DNA of 64,000 nt from Methanocella sp. (GTDB lineage Archaea > Thermoproteota > Bathyarchaeia > Bathyarchaeales > Bathycorpusculaceae), in the NCBI GenBank assembly GCA_050261115.1, contig JBLNCY010000006.1, positions 32,001-96,000 of the forward strand, in the 5' to 3' direction. How positions within the stretch are numbered: the stretch's first letter is position 1; every line of letters begins with the position of its first letter. This document shows positions 25,721 through 39,747 of the stretch, piece by piece. Made by a program: the position numbers and the translations under genes. The notes under the pieces are model-generated. The model searched no databases and was not told the DNA's origin. It saw only the letters and a program-made list of their open reading frames with translations.

Positions 25721-26692
25721 TTAGACTACAAGGTCAGCCATGTCTACACTGCGCTCATAAATTTGCCGCAGAAACTGAACCACAGCCAAAATCTGAGGCA
25801 ACAAATCCACCGAAGAATCCTTCACAGCCGCCTCAATTCGGGAACAGTTGTCATCGACCTTTCCCCTCATCTCACGAACATTTTCAGCTAGTGCGATATC
25901 CTTACATAAAAAGGCCTTGAACGCTTGCTCATTGGCATCTACACAGGTTGACTGCAACGCCAGCACCAGTCTCCTAAGTTCATCGGATAGCTTAGTGTTC
26001 TTGAGTTCAAGCGTGCTCTGCGCAATCTGAACGCAGGCGTCACCTATACCCTCAATAAAGCCCGCAATAAGACGGTAGTCCACGCATTCAATAGGAATGA
26101 TACCTAGCTTCTCGCTAAGTCGGGGGCTCTGCAAAATAGTACGCAGTATCCTAACAAGCAAAAAATAGAATTTGTTGTTCTCTACATCACGTTCGATAAC
26201 GTTCTTTGCTAAGTCCATATCAGAAGAGACAAAACTGCTAGCCGCATCACGGATCATCCGCACGGCGCTAGCCTGGTTACGCTGCAGGATTTTTCCCGGT
26301 GAAGTGAAGGGTTGCTGCATAAGGCACTGAAGCGTCATCATTGAGGGGGTTTCCTCAACAATCATAAGCCCAGCTAGCGAGTTCGCAGTGGATTTGATGA
26401 GGTTACGCATGTTTGAGTCGATGCGGTCTTTGGCTTCTATTTTTATGATATCATAACCTAAGAGGTAGCGGCCGATGATTTCGCGGCTCAAATAAGGATT
26501 AACCTTTAACGACACAGATTTAGGTTCGGGTTCAGAGGCGAATTGAGTGTCTACAAACAGTTTACCATCGCTGGTTACTTCGAGGTTAACTTGGGAGCCC
26601 TTCTGCAAGTTATGGCTCTTAGCCCATTCACGGGGTAAACAAACAAAAAACGTGCCAGTGGGAGTCTGCTGAATTTTACGCACTTCACTCAT
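25721..26692 (-). CDS. AbrB-PhoU phosphate uptake regulator
   Basis: RKIQQTPTGTFFVCLPREW AbrB domain followed by two PhoU-type helical repeats. Confidence 0.85.
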   Translation of the reverse strand: MSEVRKIQQTPTGTFFVCLPREWAKSHNLQKGSQVNLEVTSDGKLFVDTQFASEPEPKSVSLKVNPYLSREIIGRYLLGYDIIKIEAKDRIDSNMRNLIKSTANSLAGLMIVEETPSMMTLQCLMQQPFTSPGKILQRNQASAVRMIRDAASSFVSSDMDLAKNVIERDVENNKFYFLLVRILRTILQSPRLSEKLGIIPIECVDYRLIAGFIEGIGDACVQIAQSTLELKNTKLSDELRRLVLALQSTCVDANEQAFKAFLCKDIALAENVREMRGKVDDNCSRIEAAVKDSSVDLLPQILAVVQFLRQIYERSVDMADLVV

Positions 26693-26873: not shown

Positions 26874-28496
26874 ATGAGTAGGCAAGAGAAACTCCAAAAA
26901 GCCATCGAGGCAGCCATCATTGCCGGCTACCAACTAAACAGCGAAGCTTTTGAGTTCCTTACCCAAAATGTGGACACAATGGACCCCGAAGCCGTAATGA
27001 ATCTAGCATTAATGCAGTTATCTGACTTAGAGGATAAGCCCATCTTCATCGACCGAGATAGACTCGTGTCAGTTATTCATCAATTAGCAGTTGCAGAAAT
27101 GCAACAAGCCTTAGAAAACCAAACCGAAACACAACCAACCAATGAACCCAATCCAGTTAACATATTCCCGGAAGCACAAAGCTACACCGAGCCAACCATA
27201 AACGCGGTCGATGCCAGCGACTACTTTTACCCCTACGCCAAAGACATATCCTCCGAGCTTATAATCATAGAAGACCCCACAGGTAAACTCACCTCAAACG
27301 GAACAATACAAGAATACACAGCGCTCTTCCAAGACCGCTTCAGACGGGTCGAAAAAATACTCCGCAACCGCATGGATGTCCGCTCAGCCACACCGCTAGC
27401 CGAAGCGGTCAAATCCCAACCGAAATCAAAACTCAAAGTCATCTGCATGCTAACAGAAAAACGCGACAGCAAAAACAACACCATCCTCTCAGTTGAAGAC
27501 CCAAACAGCAGCGCCACCATCGTCATCCCCCACAAGGCACCTGAAGAAGTAAAAAAGAAGGCACTAACACTATTGCCCGACACCGTCTTTTGTGCGGCAG
27601 TCATCAAAACCCGAACCAATCTGCTCATGGCAGAAGACATTATCCTCCCAGAAGTCGGCCGAAAAGCACCTAAACGGGCCCAAGAACCTGTCTATGCAGT
27701 GCTGACTTCAGATGTACATGTAGGTAGCAATAAATTTACCAAAGATGCATTTCGCCGTTTCATTCTTTGGCTAAGAGGTAAGTATGGCACCCCACAAATG
27801 CGTGAAGTCGCAGGCCGCGTCAAGTACCTCTTAATCGCAGGTGACATCGTCGACGGCGTAGGTATTTATCCCGGTCAACAAACAGAACTCACCATACGTG
27901 ATGTACGCAAGCAATACAACTTTGCCATCAAATATCTAGAAAAAATACCCAGCTACATAGAAATCGTGCTCTCACCAGGCAACCACGACGCCGCGCGTAA
28001 ATCCCAACCTCAGCCAGCCATCCCAGAAGGATACCTAACCGCAATCAAAGATAAACCAAACATTCACTCTGTTGGCAGCCCCTGCTACCTAAGCATACAT
28101 GGCGTTGAAGTCTTGATGTATCACGGTGTAAGCCTAAATGACATCATAGGGGTAGTGCCGGGGATGGATAATGATCATCCTGAGAAGTCCATGAGGCTAC
28201 TTATGCAGGATCGCCACTTGGCACCTATGTATGGCGGTAAAACCATGCTTTCGCCTGAGAACCGCGACTATATGGTTGTCGAGCGAGTCCCCGACATCTT
28301 TCATGCGGGTCACATTCACGTTTTAGGCTACTGTAACTATCGGGGGGTACTTGTAGTTAATTCGGGGGGCTGGCAACTGCAGACTGAGTATATGGAAAAG
28401 TTAGGGCTGATGCCTACGCCTGGGAAGGTTCCTGTAATCAACTTGCAAACAATGGAGATTACGGTTCTGGATTTCCTAAACCCCATTGAGAGTTAG
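26874..28496 (+). CDS. polB: DNA polymerase D small subunit DP1
   Basis: SDVHVGS, AGDIVDG, PGNHD, YHG, HAGHIH phosphoesterase motifs; OB fold. Confidence 0.94.
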   Translation: MSRQEKLQKAIEAAIIAGYQLNSEAFEFLTQNVDTMDPEAVMNLALMQLSDLEDKPIFIDRDRLVSVIHQLAVAEMQQALENQTETQPTNEPNPVNIFPEAQSYTEPTINAVDASDYFYPYAKDISSELIIIEDPTGKLTSNGTIQEYTALFQDRFRRVEKILRNRMDVRSATPLAEAVKSQPKSKLKVICMLTEKRDSKNNTILSVEDPNSSATIVIPHKAPEEVKKKALTLLPDTVFCAAVIKTRTNLLMAEDIILPEVGRKAPKRAQEPVYAVLTSDVHVGSNKFTKDAFRRFILWLRGKYGTPQMREVAGRVKYLLIAGDIVDGVGIYPGQQTELTIRDVRKQYNFAIKYLEKIPSYIEIVLSPGNHDAARKSQPQPAIPEGYLTAIKDKPNIHSVGSPCYLSIHGVEVLMYHGVSLNDIIGVVPGMDNDHPEKSMRLLMQDRHLAPMYGGKTMLSPENRDYMVVERVPDIFHAGHIHVLGYCNYRGVLVVNSGGWQLQTEYMEKLGLMPTPGKVPVINLQTMEITVLDFLNPIES

Positions 28497-29716
28497 GTTT
28501 TGTGGAGGCTTTTTGGCTGATAATTTAGCAGAGGGCCAAAACGTGCGTCTGTACCAAATACATCTTTTATTAAGCCACGGCTAATTTCAAGACGAATCTT
28601 CTTAGTTCGCCCATACCGGCCCATGCTAACAACTTTGGCGTTGACAAGCCCCATAGAATCAAGCTCGTTTACAAGCGTTCCGAGGCGTCGCTGGGTAAGT
28701 AATCCTGCGCCCATTTCGCCACAGAGTTCATTGTATATGTCATAGATTTCTCCTGTGGATGCACTGTGCTTGTTGAGGTGATATACGCTTAGCAGGACAA
28801 GTTTTGAGTGCAACGTCAAGTTTTTTAGAGCTTCGATTACACGGTTGTGTTCTATGTGTTTTTCAGCTTGGCGAACGTGTTCTTCTGTGATGGTGGTTGC
28901 ACCGTTCCGTTCGGCTACTTCACCGGCTACTCTGAGCAGGTCTAGAGCTCTTCTGGCATCGCCATGCTCTGCTGCGGCCAAGGCTGCGGATATGCTAAGT
29001 GCAGACTCAGTCAAAGCACCATCCATAAATGCAAGCTTTGATCGTTCAAACAAAATATTTCGGAGTTCGCTTGCATCGTAGGGTCGGAATACGAGTTCTT
29101 CTTCACTTAAGGAGCTGAATACACGGGGGTCTAGGAATTCTTTTAGGCGGAGGTCGTTTGATATGCCGATGATTGAGACTTTGCTTTTGTTGAGTGTTTC
29201 GTTGATGCGGGTGAGTTCGTACATGAAGGCGTCGCCTCGGTCTTTTATGAGGGCATCTACCTCGTCTAGTACGATGATGAATATAATGTAAGATTGGTCT
29301 AGGCCTGAGCGGAATCTATCGAAAACTTCGCCGACTGACAACCCAGTAAAGGGAATGGATAGCCCAACACTTTGGCTAAGGGCGGCAAAAACGCGGTATT
29401 CTGAACCGGTCATGCGGCAGTTTATGTAACAGAATTTTATTTGGGCCCCATACTCTTTGGCTTTTGATTCGAGGTGGCTAAGGACGTATTTGGCTACTGC
29501 GGTTTTTCCTGTGCCGGTTTTGCCGTAGATGAATATGTTTGAGCAGCGGGCATTTCTTAGTACAGGGGCTACTGTGGATCCTAGGAGTCGGATTTGTTCT
29601 TCTCGGTGGGGGAGCTTTTCTGGTAGATAGTCATGTCTTAGGACTTCGCGGTCTTTGAAGAGTCTTGGGCCTTTTACGAAATTGTCAAACACATCATCAA
29701 GTACAGAGTTTCCCAT
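28493..29716 (-). CDS. cdc6: Orc1/Cdc6 replication initiator
   Basis: LPHREEQI, GKTGTGKT, VLDEVD, HGDARRALDLLR, C-terminal wH GRYGRT. Confidence 0.96.
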   Translation of the reverse strand: MGNSVLDDVFDNFVKGPRLFKDREVLRHDYLPEKLPHREEQIRLLGSTVAPVLRNARCSNIFIYGKTGTGKTAVAKYVLSHLESKAKEYGAQIKFCYINCRMTGSEYRVFAALSQSVGLSIPFTGLSVGEVFDRFRSGLDQSYIIFIIVLDEVDALIKDRGDAFMYELTRINETLNKSKVSIIGISNDLRLKEFLDPRVFSSLSEEELVFRPYDASELRNILFERSKLAFMDGALTESALSISAALAAAEHGDARRALDLLRVAGEVAERNGATTITEEHVRQAEKHIEHNRVIEALKNLTLHSKLVLLSVYHLNKHSASTGEIYDIYNELCGEMGAGLLTQRRLGTLVNELDSMGLVNAKVVSMGRYGRTKKIRLEISRGLIKDVFGTDARFGPLLNYQPKSLHKT

Positions 29717-29747
29717 TGTTTGCCCACCCTATTTTTTTTCAGAGGTA

Positions 29748-30336
29748 CAACCGTTATTTCGAGTGGAACAGATAAAGGCTACAGTACAAAAAAATGGTTT
29801 TGAACAACAACATTCCTAAAAGAAGACAAAAACAGGCAGAAACAACCTATCAACCCAAGGATAGACTCACCCGTTGATTTCTACTGGAAAAATCAACTAA
29901 CTTTACACTAACCCATATTATAGTATAACATAATAATATACTCTGAGTTGTAAATTAGCTTTGAATATATTAATGATTGTTGTCCAAAAAAATAGATAGA
30001 CTCTCAGAAATTATTTTTCGACCGCTTCTCAACTTCTTTTTTCCCCTAAAACTCTCGAGAGGAAAAAGAGGGGTGCCTCTCTGATCTGAATTCCATGGAA
30101 GAAAGCTTGTAAGCTGTCCCTTTGCTTCAATATTTTGCCATGGCTTGCTTTGCTCCTTACCAAAGTTCGCCTAGTGACCTCTTGATTGCCAGGTTTGGGT
30201 GGCTTAGGGGTTCACAAAACTGTGAATACATGTGAAATAGCAATAAATCTGTAGCTTTATCAAGCTTCTTTTTCGGAGATTTACTTGTTTTCTGTCTGTT
30301 AACAGTGAATGTGGCACCCCTTGGCTTCTACTGGAG
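29748..30336. other. Replication origin oriC (ORBs plus AT-rich DUE)
   Basis: ORB-like boxes: 29748-29769(-) GTTCCACTCGAAATAACGG, 29868-29890(-) TTTCCAGTAGAAATCAACGGG, 30054-30074(+) CTCGAGAGGAAAAAGAGGGGT, 30316-30336(-) CTCCAGTAGAAGCCAAGGGGT; AT-rich 29891-30050 lies between an inverted pair; directly upstream of cdc6. Confidence 0.88.
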
Positions 30337-30530
30337 AACTCGATTTAAGCTGGAAAGATAAATCTTTTAACCGTTTGTTTTTCTGTGAAGCTTGTAATTC
30401 TAAAAACAATTATAAAATAAGTTATTTACTGAAAATAAGCTTGAATTGGGCTTTTTATTTTGGCTGTTTTCACCATCACAGTTATATGCTGTGAAGCTGT
30501 AGAGTTGTGAACAACCTAGGTGTCTAATTA

Positions 30531-30962
30531 GTGCCGACTCGCAAAATGCGCGTGGAGCTCTTTGACAATGAGGGCAATCGGTATACCATTGCCTTTGAGG
30601 GTCAAGTGACCCGCGACAAAGCTCTACGCCTGCTTGATCTTGTTGAATTGCTAGGCGGCACACCGAATGAAACATCAAATATAACAAGTCCAGCAGTACC
30701 CAGTCCTCGTCAACTGTCTCGTTTTGAGAAGGTTCAAGCAGTAATTCAGAAGAATTTCCCCTTAATCTGGTTCTCATCCAAAGACATTCAGGCAGTCTAT
30801 GAGCAGGAATTCAAAGAACCTGTCAGCCTAAGCACCATATCCACCTACCTCTCCAGAATGGCCTCAAAAGGCATGCTTATGCGCACTGGCACCTCCAACA
30901 ACCTCAAGTACAAGACTGCCCCAAACATTCCAGCGACAATCAAGCAGCGTATAATAAAGTAG
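30531..30962 (+). CDS. Origin-adjacent winged-helix DNA-binding protein
   Basis: C-terminal wHTH FSSKDIQAVYEQEFKEPVSLSTISTYLSRMASKG; small N-terminal beta domain. Confidence 0.75.
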   Translation: MPTRKMRVELFDNEGNRYTIAFEGQVTRDKALRLLDLVELLGGTPNETSNITSPAVPSPRQLSRFEKVQAVIQKNFPLIWFSSKDIQAVYEQEFKEPVSLSTISTYLSRMASKGMLMRTGTSNNLKYKTAPNIPATIKQRIIK

Positions 30963-30963
30963 C

Positions 30964-31009
30964 TTCACAAGCCCTTCACAACAGTTCACCACTGTTCACA
31001 GGGTTCACA
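30964..31009 (+). repeat. Helically phased TTCAC(A) direct-repeat array
   Basis: TTCAC at 30964, 30975, 30985, 30995, 31004. Confidence 0.8.
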
Positions 31010-31083
31010 ACATGCTTGTATTAGGTTGACGATTATTGGTAGCTGCCCATATTTTTTAGCATGCTATTTAGTTGAGTTGAGTT

Positions 31084-31155
31084 GCGTCTCTTGCTTTGCC
31101 AAGAGACCCCTCCTTATATATATAGAGTCAACCTCGGGTTGAACCTGGTCTTGAA
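31084..31155 (-). repeat. Dispersed intergenic element, copy B
   Basis: Minus strand reads TTCAACCCGAGGTTGACTCTATATATATAAGGAGGGGTCTCTTGGCAAAGCAAGAGACGC. Confidence 0.8.
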
Positions 31156-31243
31156 AGCATACCTGCAAAAATACTAGCCTCACGGAACCCTTTAGTAGTA
31201 AAGCCCAGGAGACTGTCTATTTTGCAGTGGAAAATAAATTCGG

Positions 31244-32125
31244 CTAGGTTACGGCTGGCGAAGGCTCTGTCTTCTGCAGCAGGGCCTCCATCTCCTTTTT
31301 AATTGTATATCGGAACGGAATCTTACCAGCCTCCCTCTCCACATAACCTTCCTCATAAATCCTTTTCATCAACCTAGCCGTATGCTCCCTGCTCAAGCCA
31401 AGACGCTCTTTAATTTCCGGTGCAGTCTTAGCGCCCTCCTTAGAGAGCATCTCCAGCACTGCAATCTCTGTCTCGGTCAACGCTGCAAGAGCCTTGTCAC
31501 GTTTGATAGGAACAACCGGAAGCGCCATTTCACTTCGAGCCTCTATTGGAGCCGGCGGGGCAGTAGCTAACTTTTGGAGTTGTTCTTCCAACATAGCAAT
31601 TTTTTGTTGCATGGCTTGCTGGGCATTTTGTGCCTCTTGGAGTTTTGCTTGGAGGGTTGCCATTTCGTTTGTGAGCTCTGATTTTAGGGTTGTATTGTTT
31701 TGTGTGATTTCTGCCAAGTTTGCTGTGACGTCCTGGGTTAGAGTTTGATGTATTTGGTTAAGGGCGATGATCTGGGTTTCCAAGGGGTCGATTAGGTTCT
31801 CTAGCCGTTCGGCCTTTCGGTAGCTGGCTTCTGCGGTGGAGTAGCTGCCCTCAACTCTTGTCACCATATTATCAAATTTTTCTGATTGACGTTTTAATTC
31901 ACGGTTAAAACTAAGCACTATATCGCCCAAGAAATCTTTGGCTTTAGCGTATTCTTGTAGGCTCTGTTCATATTGTAGATGAGTTTTTGCGTATTCCTGC
32001 TGGGTTAGCTCATATACTCGGTGAACTTTGCGGATTTGACGGTAGTATTCATATCCTGCTATTGCTGTGACAGCTAATAGCACGCCAAAGATTACTACTG
32101 TTAGGTCAACCGTGATGCTCTCCAC
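31244..32125 (-). CDS. Membrane-anchored coiled-coil protein with C-terminal winged HTH
   Basis: N-terminal TM (VVIFGVLLAVTAIAGY), about 160 aa heptad-rich region, LTETEIAVLEML...APEIKERLGLSREHTARLMKRIYEEGYV. Confidence 0.8.
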   Translation of the reverse strand: MESITVDLTVVIFGVLLAVTAIAGYEYYRQIRKVHRVYELTQQEYAKTHLQYEQSLQEYAKAKDFLGDIVLSFNRELKRQSEKFDNMVTRVEGSYSTAEASYRKAERLENLIDPLETQIIALNQIHQTLTQDVTANLAEITQNNTTLKSELTNEMATLQAKLQEAQNAQQAMQQKIAMLEEQLQKLATAPPAPIEARSEMALPVVPIKRDKALAALTETEIAVLEMLSKEGAKTAPEIKERLGLSREHTARLMKRIYEEGYVEREAGKIPFRYTIKKEMEALLQKTEPSPAVT

Positions 32126-32466
32126 CTGTGATTTTTTCGTGATTCAACCGTGATTGTCACGTGATTATGATGATTTGTGATGATTACATGTGACATTAAC
32201 AGTTGCGTCACATATCACAAGTATCTCCATGGAAATTTAAGCCTATCGGTGACATTTTTCCATGAATTCATGACGTCACACATCACGGAAAACCGAATTA
32301 ATGCTTCTGTGATATCTATCCTTGGTTAAAGAGGCTTAATTTAAGCTTATTTTGTCGAAATAACTGTTATATTGGAGCTTGTGTGATGTGTGATAAACTA
32401 CCCCAAAATAGTGCAAAAATAATGGAAAAATTCGTGATTTGTGACGTCACAAAGGCTCTTGTGATG
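32111..32466. repeat. Dense GTGAT/GTGAC motif cluster
   Basis: About 20 GTGAY/RTCAC copies in ~350 bp by manual count; GTGAT at 32128, 32139, 32150, 32161 (11-bp period). Confidence 0.85.
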
Positions 32467-32944
32467 GGCTAGAAAGCCGTTTTAGGCTTGTTTCGAGCTC
32501 ATTTCTGATGATTTCTATGACTTTTGCATGGTCTTTTAGTTCCTCTTCCTTGCTGGGTAGGTTAGAGTGTGCGTCGACATAATCGTGCAGTTTATTGGCT
32601 ATTTCTAAGTACGGGTCAAGAGTTGTGGTCTCAAAAACGCCCAAATAACCTAAAAGAAGTACTGTGTAAATGGATTTTATGACGTTTTCTCTGGACTGTT
32701 TTAAAGTCCTATTAAACGAACCGCGGCTTATTTTAGCCCTTGTTAGGCGTAAGGCTGCTTTTTCATCGTATTTTAGCTCTTTGCCTGCTATATTTTCCGA
32801 TAAAATGTCAATGAGTAGCGTTTCGAGCTGTGTTTTTGTTAATTGGCTGTTTTTAGCCAGTATTTGTACAATAGGGTCTTTTAATGCTCCGTTTAACCAT
32901 GCTGTAACGCCGTCTTTTAGCTTCAAATCTCGTGATTCCTCCAT
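32447..32944 (-). CDS. Putative HTH DNA-binding protein (Tfx/sigma-region-4-like pattern)
   Basis: LTKTQLETL...YDEKAALR...ISRGSFNRTLKQSRENV resembles a tri-helical HTH. Confidence 0.6.
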   Translation of the reverse strand: MEESRDLKLKDGVTAWLNGALKDPIVQILAKNSQLTKTQLETLLIDILSENIAGKELKYDEKAALRLTRAKISRGSFNRTLKQSRENVIKSIYTVLLLGYLGVFETTTLDPYLEIANKLHDYVDAHSNLPSKEEELKDHAKVIEIIRNELETSLKRLSSPSQEPL

Positions 32945-33288
32945 ACCTTAAATGGATACAGTTTTGTATACCCACTCGGGTTTTTATCCTTTCGAAGCCC
33001 TCCTGACCCCAAAAACCGCTTGTTAAAGCAGATAAATTAGCCGTAAAAATGCAAATAACGCCTAAAAATTGAATTATTATTAAAAACAACGCTAAATTGG
33101 TACAGTTAACATAATAACGACTAAATCCTCGGTAATTTTATCGCTAAAAATGCCTGAACTTTACACAAAAAATGCACTTTTGCAAACGCCCACAACCCGC
33201 TAACCTCACCAGTTTTAACATACTCAGCACAATTAAACACACTTTTCAACCCCTAATCTAGCACCAAAACACATTTTTAGAAACCCAG

Positions 33289-33406
33289 CTCACAGTTCAC
33301 AATCCCGAAAAACCACGTGATATCACCAAAAAATGCGTGATTTTAGCCTTAAACCACTTGATATCACAGCGTTGTGATGCACCTGTGATGCCCAAATACC
33401 CATGGA
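33289..33406. repeat. Second GTGA/TCAC motif cluster
   Basis: About 8 copies in ~100 bp including GTGATATCAC and TGATATCA palindromes, ending in CCATGGA. Confidence 0.75.
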
Positions 33407-33424
33407 GAACTTGTGGCATTCACT

Positions 33425-34258
33425 CTAAATCTGCTCAGACAACCGCCTTAGCTGGTCATAAAGCTCTGGGCGAAGGTCCCGTAAGGTCGGAATAAAGGTC
33501 TCAGCAGTACGCAAATCGCCAAAATCAACCTCACAAAACACAAAATCCTCCTCATCATACCTTGCCCTAGCTAAAACGTCCCCTGTTGGGCTCACAACGC
33601 GGCTTCCACCCCAAAACTGCAAGCCATCCTCAACGCCTGCAAGGTTAACGTAGGCTAAATAGCAAGTGTTTTCCAAGGCCCGTGCCGCGGTAAGAACCTC
33701 AAAGTAGCTTCTGCGTACCGCTGGCGAAGCAGAAATGCAAATTATGAGTTGAGCCCCCTTCAGTCGGGATAGCCGAAAGACTTCGGGGAAGAAAACATCA
33801 TAGCAGATGGTTAGGCCGATGTTGCCGAGTTCAGTTTGGAAGGCGGCTGGTTCATATCCGGGCCGAAAATAGCGTTTCTCCTCAAACACGCTATGCGTTG
33901 GAAGATACATCTTGCGGTACTTGCCAATAAAGCCGTTTGGTCCCACTAGGACGGCGGTATTATAGATTGTCGCTTGGGTCTTCTCGCTTAGCTCTGGTAA
34001 CCCAAAGACGATGTGTATGCCTGTTTTCTTAGCTATCTCTTCAACTTTCGCTGTGCTAGGTCCGGGGACTGGTTCGGCTAGCGTGTACACTTGGTCTCGC
34101 AGTACATAGCCGGTAAGGCACATTTCAGGGAAAACAGCCAAGTCCACGCCCTCGGCTTTTGCCCTCTGGGTTAATTCTTCGATTTTTGCTAGGTTTGCGT
34201 TTTTGTTTTCTCGTTGGGGTGCGATTTGGCAGAGGGCAAGCTTGATTCTGGCTTTCAT
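33425..34258 (-). CDS. Carbon-nitrogen hydrolase (nitrilase superfamily)
   Basis: VFPEM, YRKMYLP, ICYD catalytic E-K-C triad; start MKARIKLALCQ. Confidence 0.9.
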   Translation of the reverse strand: MKARIKLALCQIAPQRENKNANLAKIEELTQRAKAEGVDLAVFPEMCLTGYVLRDQVYTLAEPVPGPSTAKVEEIAKKTGIHIVFGLPELSEKTQATIYNTAVLVGPNGFIGKYRKMYLPTHSVFEEKRYFRPGYEPAAFQTELGNIGLTICYDVFFPEVFRLSRLKGAQLIICISASPAVRRSYFEVLTAARALENTCYLAYVNLAGVEDGLQFWGGSRVVSPTGDVLARARYDEEDFVFCEVDFGDLRTAETFIPTLRDLRPELYDQLRRLSEQI

Positions 34259-36315: not shown

Positions 36316-39300
36316 TTGAACATCAACCAGGGCATAAGTAAAAGCTACCGATCCTACGTCGAGGGCTTGGAGGCAGAACTCAAGCACCTCTATGAAATCA
36401 GCGACGCCGCCAGATCCCTAGGCTTAGACCCCGCCCTAAAAACCGAATGCTTGGTTGCACAGGACATAGCTGACCTCGTAGAGGGTCTAGTGGGACCCAC
36501 AGGCGTCGCAGTCAGCATCCGCGAACTCAGCAAAAAAATGCCCCGCGAAGAAATCGCCTTCTATGCCGCCAAAGAGATTGCAGAGGGCAAATTCGCCCAA
36601 ACCGACGAAGAGCGCCAACCTGAACAGCTAGCAGAGCAAGCTATTCGGACGGCACTGGCCATTTTTACCGAAGGCTTAACCGCCGCTCCCATCCAGGGCA
36701 TTGCGCATGTGAAGATTAAGAAGAACGCTGACCAGACACGATATTTAGCGGTTTACTTCGCAGGACCAATCCGCTCTGCTGGCGGAACAGACCAAGCCCT
36801 AACTCTGGTCGTTGCCGACTACGTAAGGCGCGCCTTGGGGTTGGATGTGTATAAGCCCACCGAAGAAGAAGTCTCCCGCTTCATAGAGGAGCTTCGACTC
36901 TACGAGCGCAGTGTAGGCCGCTTCCAGTACCACATTCCCGATGAGGAACTCCGCAAGGCACTCAACATCGTCCCCGTCGAATGCACGGGCACCGAATCCG
37001 ACCCCGTCGAAGTCTCCTCCTACCGCAACCTGGACCGCGTGGAAACTAACCGCGTCCGGGGCGGCGCCCTAAGAGTCATTAACGACGGCATTGTAGGCCG
37101 GGCCCAGAAAGTCTGGGTTGTCTGCGACAAAATCGGTTTTCATGAATGGGATTGGCTTAAGAATTTTAAAAAGAAGTCTGAGAAGAAATCCGCGGGCTTC
37201 ATGGATGATGTCATCGCTGGTCGCCCCATTTTCGCTTTTCCCTCCACCCGGGGCGGCTTTAGACTTCGATATGGCCGCTCACGCAACACAGGCCTCTCCG
37301 CGGTGGGTATCCACCCTGCCACTATGGCTGTTGTGGAGGGGTTTTTGGCTGCTGGAACACAGATGCGTCTAGAGTTGCCCGGCAAAGGCGGCGTCACCCT
37401 GCCAGTAGATTACATAGAAGAGCCCGTGGTGCTGCTCAAAGATAACTCTGTTGTCCGCGTCTCCCTAACAAAGCTGCCAGATGTCAAAGGCAAAATCGCA
37501 AAAATCCTCTTTCTAGGAGACATGCTTATCGACTTTGGCGACTTCCTCTACAGTAACAAAACCCTAATTCCCTCTGGCTATGTGGAGGAATGGTACTGCC
37601 AAGACCTCAACAACGCGGTACTGTCCCTCTTTGGCGGCGATTTAGAGAAGGCTGCGGAGGCTTGCGGCCTCTCATCTAAGCGCCTAGATGCCCTTATCCA
37701 TGACCCTTTCAAGAACAAACCCAACATCAAAGAGGCATCTGCGCTCTGTCGAGCCCTCGGCGTTCCACTGGCGCCTAACTGCCTACATTACTGGAGTAAT
37801 CTGGCAACCGTTGCAGAGGTTGAGTTGATGCGTAAGTGGCTAGCTAGCTGTGATGTCACCGAAGCAGACGACGTGGGTTGCAGGATCACAGGCGCCGCAG
37901 GCAACGATGTTGTTACGGCTCTGCGGAAGGCCTTCATACCTCACAAGTACCTCGAGGGCAAAGTTACTATCCAGGGTCAAGATGCTGCCTCGTTTGCGTT
38001 CACGCTTGGGTATGGATCGTCAGGGCTAACTGAGCCGTTCCAAGCAGAAACCGTGCTCGAATTGTTGTCCAAGACCTCTGGCGTAATGATCAAGGATAAG
38101 GCTCCAACGTATGTGGGTGGACGTATGGGGCGTCCTGAGAAAGCCAAGCACCGTGATATGCGTCCTTTGGTGCATGTGCTTTTTCCTGTGGGGCTTGCAG
38201 GTGGTAGTCACCGTGATCTCTGTGCTGCAGCTAAAAAAAGCGCCGTGTTTGTTGAGATGGTTAAACGCAAATGCCCCGAATGCAAAACTTACACTATAAA
38301 ACTCAAATGTGACGCTTGCGGTGTACCGACAATTCAGGAAAAAACTTGCCCCCGATGCGGCCGTTCTTTAAAGGATAGCTACTGCGGGTCATGTAAAGCT
38401 GACGCGGTTCTCTATCAGCGTCAACCCGTTAATTTTAAGCACCTCATCGATGGTGCATGCGCTACTCTTGGTTGTTCCCCGCCCAAGATGCTTAGAGGCG
38501 TAAAAGGCTTAACAAACCTTGACAAAACCCCCGAGATGCTCGAGAAAGGGATACTGCGCGCCAAGTACGGGGTTTCAACCTACAAAGATGGCACAACTCG
38601 CTTCGACGGTACCAACGCCCCCCTTACCCATATCACTCCTGAAGAAATCGGCGTCTCTGTTGAGAAGATGCATCAGATGGGCTACCACTATGACACGCAT
38701 GGCTTGCCATTAACTCACCCTTCTCAGGTTTGTGAACTTAAAATCCAAGACGTCGTCATCCCCCGAAAAGCAGGCGACTATCTCCTCCGCGTCGCAGGGT
38801 TTGTCGATGAGTTGCTTGAGAAAGTCTACAAGCTCCCACCCTACTACAAAGCCACCAAACCCGAAGACATGGTGGGTCAGCTTATCTTTGGGCTTGCCCC
38901 TCACACCTGCGCCTGCATCCTTGGCCGTATCGTAGGCTACACAGATCGCAACCTCATCTATGCGCATCCAGTTTGGCACTCTGCTAAACGCCGAGACTGC
39001 GACGGCGACGAAGACGCCATTATGCTAGCGTTAGATACGCTTTTGAATTTTTCAAAGGTTTTCTTACCTAGCCAAATCGGCGGTATCATGGATGCTCCTA
39101 TCCTTATGTTGCCTTTCTGCAATACCAGGGAGGTTCAGCGTCAGGCCCACGACTTTGACGTTAGCCAAATTTACCCAGTGGAGTTCTATCGTAAAACTTG
39201 GGAGAAAGGCGAATCCCGTACCGTAAGTGCCGTTATGGATGTAATTAGCCACCGTCTTGGTACTGAGGGCCAATTTGAGGGTTACCAGTTCACTGTGCCC

Positions 39301-39747
39301 ACCACCAACATCAACTTGGGTAACGCTAATAGTAGCTACAAAGAGTTCAAGTCCATGACCGATAAACTCAACATGCAGTTGGGGCTAGCTGAAAAGATTG
39401 AAGCCGTCGACGCTAGGCGCGTGGCGCTTAAGGTTCTCAACTGCCACCTGATGCGTGACATTGCTGGCAACATGCGCGCTTTTTCCACCCAAGGGTTCCG
39501 ATGCAAATCATGTAACGGGAAATACCGGCGTCTTCCCCTTGCGGGTAAATGTACTCGCTGCGGTGGAGAGTTGACATTGACTGTCTACCGGGGAAACATT
39601 GAGAAATACCTCAAAGCCGCCCACAACCTAGTCGATAAGTATGGCCTGCCAAACTATTACACGCAACGTATGGATCTTATTCAGGAGGAAATCACCCTTA
39701 TGTTTGATAACAAGAAGCCTAAACAAACCAAGCTTTTCGACTTTTAA
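36316..39747 (+). CDS. polC: DNA polymerase D large subunit DP2
   Basis: AGPIRSAGGT, GGFRLRYGR, GRMGRPEKA, KRRDCDGDED catalytic motif, zinc fingers; no intein evident. Confidence 0.97.
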   Translation: MNINQGISKSYRSYVEGLEAELKHLYEISDAARSLGLDPALKTECLVAQDIADLVEGLVGPTGVAVSIRELSKKMPREEIAFYAAKEIAEGKFAQTDEERQPEQLAEQAIRTALAIFTEGLTAAPIQGIAHVKIKKNADQTRYLAVYFAGPIRSAGGTDQALTLVVADYVRRALGLDVYKPTEEEVSRFIEELRLYERSVGRFQYHIPDEELRKALNIVPVECTGTESDPVEVSSYRNLDRVETNRVRGGALRVINDGIVGRAQKVWVVCDKIGFHEWDWLKNFKKKSEKKSAGFMDDVIAGRPIFAFPSTRGGFRLRYGRSRNTGLSAVGIHPATMAVVEGFLAAGTQMRLELPGKGGVTLPVDYIEEPVVLLKDNSVVRVSLTKLPDVKGKIAKILFLGDMLIDFGDFLYSNKTLIPSGYVEEWYCQDLNNAVLSLFGGDLEKAAEACGLSSKRLDALIHDPFKNKPNIKEASALCRALGVPLAPNCLHYWSNLATVAEVELMRKWLASCDVTEADDVGCRITGAAGNDVVTALRKAFIPHKYLEGKVTIQGQDAASFAFTLGYGSSGLTEPFQAETVLELLSKTSGVMIKDKAPTYVGGRMGRPEKAKHRDMRPLVHVLFPVGLAGGSHRDLCAAAKKSAVFVEMVKRKCPECKTYTIKLKCDACGVPTIQEKTCPRCGRSLKDSYCGSCKADAVLYQRQPVNFKHLIDGACATLGCSPPKMLRGVKGLTNLDKTPEMLEKGILRAKYGVSTYKDGTTRFDGTNAPLTHITPEEIGVSVEKMHQMGYHYDTHGLPLTHPSQVCELKIQDVVIPRKAGDYLLRVAGFVDELLEKVYKLPPYYKATKPEDMVGQLIFGLAPHTCACILGRIVGYTDRNLIYAHPVWHSAKRRDCDGDEDAIMLALDTLLNFSKVFLPSQIGGIMDAPILMLPFCNTREVQRQAHDFDVSQIYPVEFYRKTWEKGESRTVSAVMDVISHRLGTEGQFEGYQFTVPTTNINLGNANSSYKEFKSMTDKLNMQLGLAEKIEAVDARRVALKVLNCHLMRDIAGNMRAFSTQGFRCKSCNGKYRRLPLAGKCTRCGGELTLTVYRGNIEKYLKAAHNLVDKYGLPNYYTQRMDLIQEEITLMFDNKKPKQTKLFDF

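Follow-up and report, generated by a model that had tools for sequence, protein, structure and literature searches.

Three predicted DNA-binding genes, one of them with a membrane helix, lie directly beside a predicted archaeal replication origin: do they only regulate themselves, or do they hold the origin region at the cell membrane? The question is raised by a stretch of 64,000 nucleotides (hereafter the window) from Methanocella sp., placed by GTDB in the Bathyarchaeia (assembly GCA_050261115.1, contig JBLNCY010000006.1, positions 32,001 to 96,000). We studied the region around window positions 29,748-33,424, which is carried by the contig that we call C6 in a genome of 2.15 Mb. To our knowledge, the way in which chromosomes are positioned and separated in archaea outside the Sulfolobales and haloarchaea is largely unknown, and we know of no archaeal protein that ties the origin region to the membrane.

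An earlier note on the window had pointed to three open reading frames (ORFs) next to the initiator gene cdc6 and to an origin with origin recognition boxes (ORBs): a winged helix-turn-helix (wHTH) gene, a gene for a transmembrane segment, a long coiled coil and a wHTH domain, and a helix-turn-helix (HTH)-like gene. All three ORFs, named g1, g2 and g3 here, are present where it put them, and their description was borne out by Pfam, hydropathy and structure models; the adjoining ORB-like repeats and an AT-rich stretch are likewise seen beside cdc6. Judged by their modelled folds, g1, g2 and g3 are DNA-binding proteins, and g2 is membrane-anchored as well. The reading that we put forward tentatively, as somewhat short of probable, is that the trio is an autoregulated anchor of the origin region in which g2 would hold origin-proximal DNA at the membrane, by analogy with the bacterial proteins RicO and RacA.

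g2 is a predicted membrane-anchored winged-helix protein

Residues 216-275 of g2 matched the Pfam families MarR (1.6e-7; 31.5 bits for a cut-off of 24.6), TrmB (3.1e-7; 30.6 bits for 25.6) and MarR_2 (28.3 bits for 27), all above cut-off, while residues 40-190 gave coiled-coil-type matches. According to hydropathy analysis, the strongest hydrophobic 19-mer begins at residue 4 (Kyte-Doolittle value of 2.44) and is followed by basic residues. From its N-terminus, the protein comprises a membrane helix (about residues 8-25), a juxtamembrane helix that is conserved, a coiled coil whose length varies, and a MarR/TrmB winged helix. In the alignment, SREHTARLMKK..Y..GY.ER is invariant and the winged helix nearly so. 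At most about 10 residues lie outside the membrane, which leaves no room for an outside sensor domain.

The build of anchor, rod and head described in the earlier note is conserved, since all 20 orthologues have the membrane helix, as do 9 of 12 distant relatives, in which the linker varies from about 50 to 180 residues. MarR/TrmB regulators are soluble dimers with a ligand or effector part; g2 shares only the DNA-binding domain with them and has a membrane helix and a coiled coil instead. Its family counts 3088 relatives without curated function, which carry only automatic labels such as MarR regulator, and some of them are spuriously labelled chromosome segregation ATPase. The g2 of the window also has a 21-residue insertion after the membrane helix (residues ~35-56; 31960-32025), which repeats the following QEYAKAK segment and is absent from 14 of 14 aligned orthologues. 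No paralogue of g1, g2 or g3 was found by tblastn elsewhere in the window's genome.

The densest GTGA clusters of the genome lie at the trio locus

Between positions 29867 and 33420, we counted 58 GTGA/TCAC cores, 44 of which fall in the four intergenic gaps: 11 in the 814 nt between cdc6 and g1, 6 in the 281 nt between g1 and g2, 17 in the 321 nt between g2 and g3, and 10 in the 480 nt between g3 and the nitrilase-type gene (nit). The density reaches 53 cores per kb in the g2-g3 gap, compared to a genome mean of 5.5 per kb. Among 42,800 genome bins of 150 nt, the five richest (7-11 cores) are all at the trio locus, together with seven of the eight bins holding at least 3 copies of TGTGAT and all six bins holding at least 3 copies of TGTGAA. 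A triple GTGAT repeat at 5-7-nt gaps, which captures the run of sites phased at 11 bp, occurs in the genome only at this locus, and 4 of the genome's 9 heptad pairs of the form GTGAYNYGTGA are within the 321-nt g2-g3 gap. Because the dense sites are confined to the trio locus, their binders would have no regulon elsewhere. Other GTGA-rich bins, on contigs C27, C18, C66 and C23, were set aside as they looked by eye like chance clusters in unrelated sequence.

Two statements of the earlier note on these motifs had to be narrowed. It had described every gap as packed with GTGA-core motifs; these are indeed the densest clusters of the genome, but the g1-g2 gap is filled in its first 50 nt only. 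It had also treated them as one motif type; the GTGA core is common to all, but two classes can be distinguished, TGTGAA at g1 and the origin, and GTGAT/GTGAC at g2 and g3.

The second class forms arrays 1 and 2 (Table 1), at ~2.2 and 3.4 kb from the unwinding element of the predicted origin. The layout of array 1 is kept in the 10 relatives displayed. Across 21 g2-g3 gaps, the spacing of neighbouring cores on the same strand peaks at 7 nt (56 cases) and 11 nt (25), and that of neighbours on opposite strands at 6 nt (23) and 18 nt (13). At the site of array 2, relatives carry a run of TCAC cores and then a run of GTGA cores, with up to 12 copies of TGTGAT in 150 nt in locus L031. A TCCATGG-like element (ttccatg/ttccatgg) is central in array 2 of two relatives (L031 and L017). 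As a separate observation, TCCATGG/CCATGGA occurs at 2.7 per kb in the 21 g2-g3 gaps (present in 11 of them) versus 0.17 per kb in the genome, and this element is one base off the ORB core TCCACTGGA.

Gene order and motif clusters among relatives

We fetched 56 loci in all, 20 at the order level (genus and order), 20 at the class level and 16 from other classes. g2 was found in 35 of 41 genomes of the genus and order. At the order level, the gene order phoU-polD-cdc6-g1-g2-g3-nit-nadE-elf1-ggps-polD is kept as far as the contigs reach, g2 and g3 are adjacent in 20 of 20 loci, and each of these loci has 25-55 GTGA cores per kb in its g2-g3 gap, for a background of 5-9.5 per kb. The linkage to cdc6 and the conservation of the motif clusters, on which the earlier note had made its case depend, are thus both found in the 20 order-level loci. 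Further out, 15 of the 20 class-level loci have cdc6 within 8 kb of g3, while g1 is present in 14 and g2 in 13. Of the 16 loci from other classes, 7 have a cdc6 at most 8 kb from g3, with cdc6 identity down to 39%; the full polD-cdc6-g1-g2-g3 order is present in two complete genomes of one family, and g3 and g2 overlap on one strand in four loci.

The co-occurrence of genes and clusters was counted over the window and 40 loci, a cluster being at least 3 copies in 150 nt. TGTGAT clusters are present in 29 of the 34 loci with g2 and in 1 of the 7 without it. TGTGAA clusters are present in 26 of the 34 loci with g1 and in none of the 7 without it; all 26 lie within 322 nt of g1. In two loci where an insert separates g1 and cdc6 by 3.3 kb (L040 and L052), the TGTGAA cluster stays with g1. 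These counts suggest that TGTGAA is read by g1, and GTGAT/GTGAC by g2. g3 is retained in loci that have no array, and the proposal of the earlier note that g1 and g3 coat centromere-like arrays is unsupported.

The predicted origin and g1

The cdc6/orc1 product matches Cdc6_lid (7.1e-24) and Cdc6_C (7.3e-24) in Pfam, as well as AAA domains. In the gap between cdc6 and g1, ORB-like boxes surround an AT-rich stretch; we take these repeats to be putative ORB boxes from their likeness to the ORB consensus. The same layout was seen in relatives, and 14 of 19 orthologous gaps contain the core CTACTGGA / CCAGTAGA. On contig C6, the turn of the cumulative GC skew is at ~54 kb, 8 kb off the gap, which is weak support. 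On its sequence, the gap is predicted to be an archaeal-type oriC, in which ORB-type repeats flank an AT-rich unwinding element beside the initiator gene. A second orc1/cdc6 paralogue, with 31% identity to that of the window, lies on contig C47 (25348-26490), and the genome-wide bin scan gave no GTGA-rich bin there.

In Pfam, g1 has only sub-threshold wHTH matches, such as Penicillinase_R (0.005; 17.6 bits for a cut-off of 22.6). It scores 13.4 bits against CopY, for a cut-off of 121.95, and a profile match to the BlaI/CopY-type regulator 2k4b has an E value of 0.012. The g1 model, built on 29 aligned orthologues (predicted local distance difference test, pLDDT, of 66.8), has an N-terminal beta-beta-alpha domain (residues 4-41), a variable disordered linker and a C-terminal winged helix (57-135). 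This winged helix superposes on the DNA-binding domains of Fur, Zur and MecI with Z scores of 8.4-10.8. The Fur value is 10.8 (root mean square deviation, rmsd, of 2.4 over 70 aligned residues) and the MecI value of 8.4 is no better than that of many other winged helices. In the BlaI/MecI/CopY repressors, the winged helix is followed by a C-terminal dimerisation helix bundle, whereas the extra domain of g1 is N-terminal. Two possible origins of g1 were dropped, as a duplicate of g2 and as a detached winged helix of Cdc6, the profile comparisons being not significant (probabilities of 3.6% and 0.8%, respectively).

TGTGAA is the commonest non-A-rich hexamer of 19 cdc6-g1 gaps, with 112 copies and at least one in each. 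In the g1-g2 gap the motif is variable, 6 of the 12 short (no-insert) gaps displayed, window included, holding at least 2 copies of TGTGAA/TTCACA. In two complete genomes of another class (L061:6159-6558 and L062:9749-10217), the cdc6-g1 gap has clear ORB boxes and, judged by eye and uncounted, many GTTAAC in place of TGTGAA. The site sequence of g1 may have changed with lineage.

g3 is the best conserved of the trio

g3 has no Pfam or NCBIfam match. Its model, from 36 sequences (pLDDT of 81.5), is all-helical without any strand and consists of an HTH (33-99) followed by a C-terminal helical hairpin (103-158). Residues 33-99 match LuxR/NarL, sigma-70 region 4 and Tfx-type HTH domains with Z scores of 6.5-7.3, EsrB giving 7.3. 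Residues 33-94 superpose on residues 5-55 of EnfR (8hno) with a Z score of 6.7, an rmsd of 1.3 and 29% identity over 51 residues. With the same model, Foldseek against the PDB returned no match below an E value of 0.001; PDB sequence profiles gave coiled-coil noise only, and an Atlas search gave only unnamed Bathyarchaeota clusters with a weak Sigma70_r4 lead (14% of one cluster, score 0.78). As the Z scores of the model lie in the commonly seen range, we regard the HTH assignment as plausible but not strong. EnfR is described as a repressor that resembles sigma-70 region 4, and the EnfR/Tfx family joins an HTH to an alpha+beta "note-head" domain (PMC10570040). The HTH of g3 is alike, but g3 ends in a helical hairpin and has no sequence-level match to this family.

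The g3 family counts 2875 relatives, unnamed or "hypothetical" apart from a few automatic labels. Of 151 genomes of the class, 120 carry g3, as a single copy, and so do 87 of the 95 high-quality ones; it was found in 100 of 201 genomes of the phylum. GTATACAA, in the region of the TATA-like box of g3, is present in 17 of 20 orthologous gaps.

RNA contigs over the locus

RNA evidence came from the contigs of four metatranscriptome runs belonging to three studies. cdc6, g1 and g2 are covered in all four runs and g3 in two of them. The g1 contigs start at 30525-30553, at the start codon. Those of g2 span 31292-32180, and three of them, from three runs, end at 32178-32180, 53-55 nt ahead of the start codon, which weakly hints at a g2 transcript start there, inside array 1. 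In that case the phased GTGATT repeats would be in the leader and a heptad pair at the TATA position. Positions 29907-30524, 32181-32489 and 32898-33390 are uncovered in the four runs, to which no weight is given.

Relation to known membrane-associated DNA-binding proteins

In the RacA/ram/DivIVA system of Bacillus subtilis, a coiled-coil rod with an HTH head attaches DNA near the origin to the membrane at one cell site. RacA reaches the membrane via DivIVA, is sporulation-specific and uses dispersed sites; it has no membrane helix of its own, whereas g2 has one. ToxR and CadC act on DNA from the membrane through a winged-helix DNA-binding domain on a single transmembrane helix. Their DNA-binding domain is N-terminal and they have a periplasmic sensor, whereas g2 has at most ~10 residues outside and a long coiled coil inside.

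As described in a preprint (10.64898/2026.03.06.710092), RicO of Staphylococcus aureus combines a DNA-binding domain with a coiled coil and a membrane helix, binds origin-proximal sites, anchors origins and works without an ATPase of its own. In that account, the RicO/ricS system resembles g2 in that a single polypeptide carries a sequence-specific DNA-binding domain, a coiled coil and an element that binds the membrane, and in that the sites are near the origin; the parts of RicO are in the reverse order, and it has an amphipathic helix where g2 has a transmembrane one. RicO is bacterial, and its likeness to g2 is one of architecture, not of sequence comparison. From its sequence, g2 has the predicted parts of an anchor of the RicO/RacA kind, namely a specific DNA-binding domain, a coiled coil and access to the membrane; this is a functional class and not a homology family. 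We found no published work on the cdc6-g1-g2-g3 trio in the literature searched, most subscription journals being outside it; supplementary arCOG tables (e.g. PMC11188069) may list the families.

A candidate anchor of the origin region

We propose that the trio is an old module in which three site-specific DNA-binding proteins flank oriC, with their recognition sites confined to one locus. g1 would most likely bind TGTGAA, both at its own promoter and at the sites interleaved with the right-hand ORB box. Most likely, the N-terminal helix of g2 would sit in the membrane, its coiled-coil stalk would extend into the cytoplasm and its winged-helix head would bind GTGAT/GTGAC. g2 would repress itself through array 1, since this array covers its promoter and leader. 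Because g2 cannot leave the membrane, arrays 1 and 2, when occupied, would keep origin-proximal DNA at the cell membrane. g3 would be a third, more widespread regulator of the same neighbourhood. A DNA-holding protein fits better than a signal-responsive regulator, because the membrane helix is conserved with almost nothing outside, the stalk is free in length, the winged helix is near-invariant and the sites are found only beside oriC.

In a wider form of this proposal, g2 and the arrays would be an origin-to-membrane anchor ancestral to the Bathyarchaeia and to several further classes within the phylum. Growth of the membrane or of the cell would then move replicated origins apart, or the origins would be placed for the division machinery, in either case with no partition ATPase dedicated to the task. 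g1 among the ORB boxes would couple the device to initiation. We consider this wider form possible but doubtful.

Several observations weigh against an anchor. All sites are within 1.3 kb and on the genes' own promoters, which is the usual picture of plain autoregulators, and because the arrays overlap these promoters, autoregulation by the trio is likely to be at least part of the story. In comparison, the preprint gives RicO nine single 18-bp sites over ~700 kb, where here two dense arrays adjoin the gene itself and span no more than 1.3 kb. The phased run of four GTGATT repeats is possibly in the transcribed leader and may have a role at the RNA level. Among relatives, the arrays track g1 and g2 individually and not the origin; in loci of other classes they are small or not evident, and 9 of these 16 loci have no cdc6 within 8 kb of g3. 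g2 and the arrays are absent together from 6 of the 20 class-level loci, and in five genomes without g2 at the locus (94-98% complete) no credible match to it was found elsewhere (0 of 5); the function of g2 is therefore dispensable in those lineages. Three of the 12 distant g2 relatives have no membrane helix in the ORF as read. Finally, TGTGAT is ascribed to g2, and not to g3 or to the two together, only on account of co-loss, and the co-occurrence counts overstate independence because the genomes are kin.

A strong rival is that the three proteins are ordinary local transcription factors. They would repress their own and each other's promoters and perhaps tune cdc6 or polD, the arrays being strong, cooperative operators and the g2 helix a means to sequester the regulator or to release it on a signal. 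In g1 and g2, the sites do lie over the TATA and transcript-start regions, and the dyads TTCACAaaacTGTGAA, GTGATATCAC and TGTGACGTCACA are typical of dimer operators. MarR/TrmB, BlaI-like and Tfx-like folds are regulator folds, the solved HTH closest to that of g3, from EnfR, belongs to a repressor (PMC10570040), and g2 can be lost along with its arrays. However, high-density sites are present only at the genes themselves, so that nothing else would be regulated, and g2 has no outside domain for sensing. Array 2 is rather distant for a promoter operator, being 350-440 nt away from where g3 starts and next to the 3' end of a different gene, and the order beside oriC is kept across classes, longer than is usual for unrelated regulators. 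We hold this explanation to be a real possibility, somewhat less probable than the anchor.

If g2 is an anchor, the locus would hold an archaeal counterpart, without homology, to devices of a known kind. If the proteins are plain regulators, it would hold three unannotated regulator families with likely operators in the PolD-cdc6-oriC island, which is among the most conserved gene neighbourhoods of Bathyarchaeia. The locus is a concrete, widely conserved candidate for a link between origin and membrane, with ~3,100 members in the g2 family, ~2,900 in the g3 family, and defined cis sites.

Centromere and initiation control as further explanations

The arrays could also be a chromosomal centromere bound by g2 and/or g3, with a motor encoded elsewhere, either a ParA/SegA-type or a HerA/FtsK-type ATPase. 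In the work on pSM19035 (PMC9499535), Omega (ParB) binds parS repeat arrays in both orientations, with the core WATCACW, which lie over promoters and act as operator and centromere; phased direct repeats over par promoters are typical of plasmid centromeres in the same source. The parS heptads are 7 bp long, and 7 is also the commonest spacing in the g2-g3 gaps. In that text, however, Omega is a ribbon-helix-helix (RHH) protein that works with a ParA ATPase, whereas the trio is of HTH/winged-helix type, and parS needs at least 4 contiguous heptads, whereas here we see mostly pairs, plus 11-bp phased repeats and palindromes. The WATCACW core common to pSM19035 and our arrays is most likely a coincidence. 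SegAB of the Sulfolobales is described (PMC8682754, PMC12284271, PMC12139799) as a chromosomal system with a small site-specific DNA-binding protein, sites beside its own operon and the ParA-type gene segA next to segB. Arrays 1 and 2 share with SegAB and ParABS the clustered repeats beside the operon. These systems have their ParA/SegA ATPase encoded alongside, whereas we found no ParA-type gene in the window or on contig C6, and their centromere binder is a ParB_N or RHH protein, whereas g1-g3 have HTH/winged-helix folds and no ParB_N or RHH domain in Pfam at E values up to 1.

Elsewhere in the window's genome, there are PF13614 and PF01656 matches on contigs C31, C20, C52, C54, C17 and C8, and four ParA/MinD-family genes exceed the AAA_31 cut-off. 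Among relatives, a ParA-like gene (AAA_31, 4.6e-50) is directly beside g3 in L059, within a cluster (L059:5021-10270) that also encodes a ParB_N protein, a 115-amino-acid ORF and an RHH protein; with its product as tblastn query, only C31 and C20 were found in the window's genome, at 25-26% identity. A ParA-like gene of 37% identity lies ~120 nt from g3 in L050 (6977-7795), and another, seemingly broken in two, lies 4 kb from g3 in L052 (3173-3917). Such a gene adjoins g3 in 2 of 56 loci (L059 and L050, of unrelated lineages), or in 3 counting those within 4 kb, versus ~1.5 loci expected by chance in a 16-kb window on a rough estimate, and this adjacency is suggestive at most.

A HerA-like ATPase gene (515 amino acids; DUF87 5.3e-8, PADLOC HerA 3.5e-11), with a gene for a 339-amino-acid partner without family match, lies between g1 and g2 in 8 of the 20 order-level loci (L014:4979-7514, L015, L019, L020, L021, L022, L028 and L030). 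This cassette is missing from the window's genome and the class-level loci and looks like a mobile insert. The earlier note had called the system apparently ATPase-free; the window does lack a ParA-type gene, but the wider claim is not established, given the several such genes elsewhere in the genome and the ParA-like and HerA-like genes in relatives' loci. We consider a centromere improbable.

More improbable still is a control of initiation, in which g1 around the ORB box at 30315-30341 would help or hinder Orc1/Cdc6 loading and g2 would sequester the new origin at the membrane in a SeqA-like manner: TGTGAA does occur on both sides of the right-hand ORB box, its positions being conserved among the relatives displayed, and g1 is absent from three class-level loci that have g2 and g3 beside polD and no cdc6 (L036, L039 and L046), but the TGTGAA cluster does not follow cdc6 in L040 and L052, g1 occurs without a nearby cdc6 in L059, L065 and L068, and the comparison of g1 and Cdc6 profiles is not significant.

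Other features of the locus

The features of the locus are listed in Table 1. PADLOC and PHROGs gave no match for g1 and g3; for g2, they returned matches of the wHTH or coiled-coil type only. A defence or viral origin of the trio is not indicated. Neither Rfam (E values up to 1) nor a tRNA scan found known RNA families in 29500-33600, and the gaps are therefore not explained by one.

Table 1. Coordinates of the genes, repeats and sites at the trio locus (window positions)
Feature	Position	Strand	Remarks
PhoU-like gene	25721-26692	-	leftmost of the neighbourhood
PolD small subunit gene	26874-28496	+	
orc1/cdc6	28493-29716	-	divergent from g1 across the origin
cdc6-g1 gap, predicted oriC	29717-30530		814 nt
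ORB-like direct repeats (D2)	29868-29894 and 30315-30341		27 nt, 81% alike
AT-rich unwinding stretch	~29900-30010		GC 0.36
Inverted ORB-like partner (pair I3)	30053-30077		
TGTGAA dyad TTCACAaaacTGTGAA and third copy	30212-30237		right half of the origin gap
TGTGAA single sites	30305 and 30385		flank the ORB box 30315-30341
TGTGAA pair	30491 and 30507		just past TATA-like TTATAT, over the likely g1 transcript start
g1	30531-30962	+	143 amino acids
Five tandem GTGAA-core repeats, four full TTCACA	30965-31010	-	9-11 bp spacing, directly after the g1 stop codon
g2	31244-32125	-	293 amino acids
Array 1	32128-32450	.	over the g2 leader and promoter, as far as the g3 stop codon
Array 1, four GTGATT repeats	32128-32166		11-bp phase
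Array 1, heptad pairs TCACAnATCAC	32208, 32276		
Array 1, central palindrome TCCATGGA	32226-32233		also listed with 30092-30099
Array 1, heptad pairs GTGATnTGTGA	32383, 32434		
Array 1, palindrome TGTGACGTCACA	32440		overlaps the g3 stop codon
g3	32447-32944	-	165 amino acids
TATA-like box GTATACAAAA	32962-32971	-	18-27 nt before the g3 ATG; leaderless-type promoter, as read from sequence
Array 2	33290-33389	.	GTGA-core repeats next to the 3' end of the nitrilase gene, ~350-440 nt upstream of g3
Array 2, two 17-nt direct repeats	33310 and 33351		
Array 2, palindrome GTGATATCAC	33317		
Nitrilase-type hydrolase, NAD synthetase, Elf1 and geranylgeranylglyceryl phosphate (GGGP) synthase genes			beyond g3, in this order
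PolD large subunit gene	36316-39747		

Between the g3 promoter and array 2 (32990-33290), the plus strand is strongly G-poor, with a GC skew down to -0.38, an AT skew of +0.22 and a GC content of 0.37. In the g1-g2 gap, positions 31096-31165 hold a dispersed element of ~55 nt, present in 31 copies in the genome, this one included. It is made of a C-rich stretch, TTATATATA, GAGTCAACC..GGGTTGAAC and GCTTGAAA, and looks like a strong promoter with the conserved start of either an uncharacterised transcript or a small mobile element. One RNA contig (30958-31172) overlaps it.

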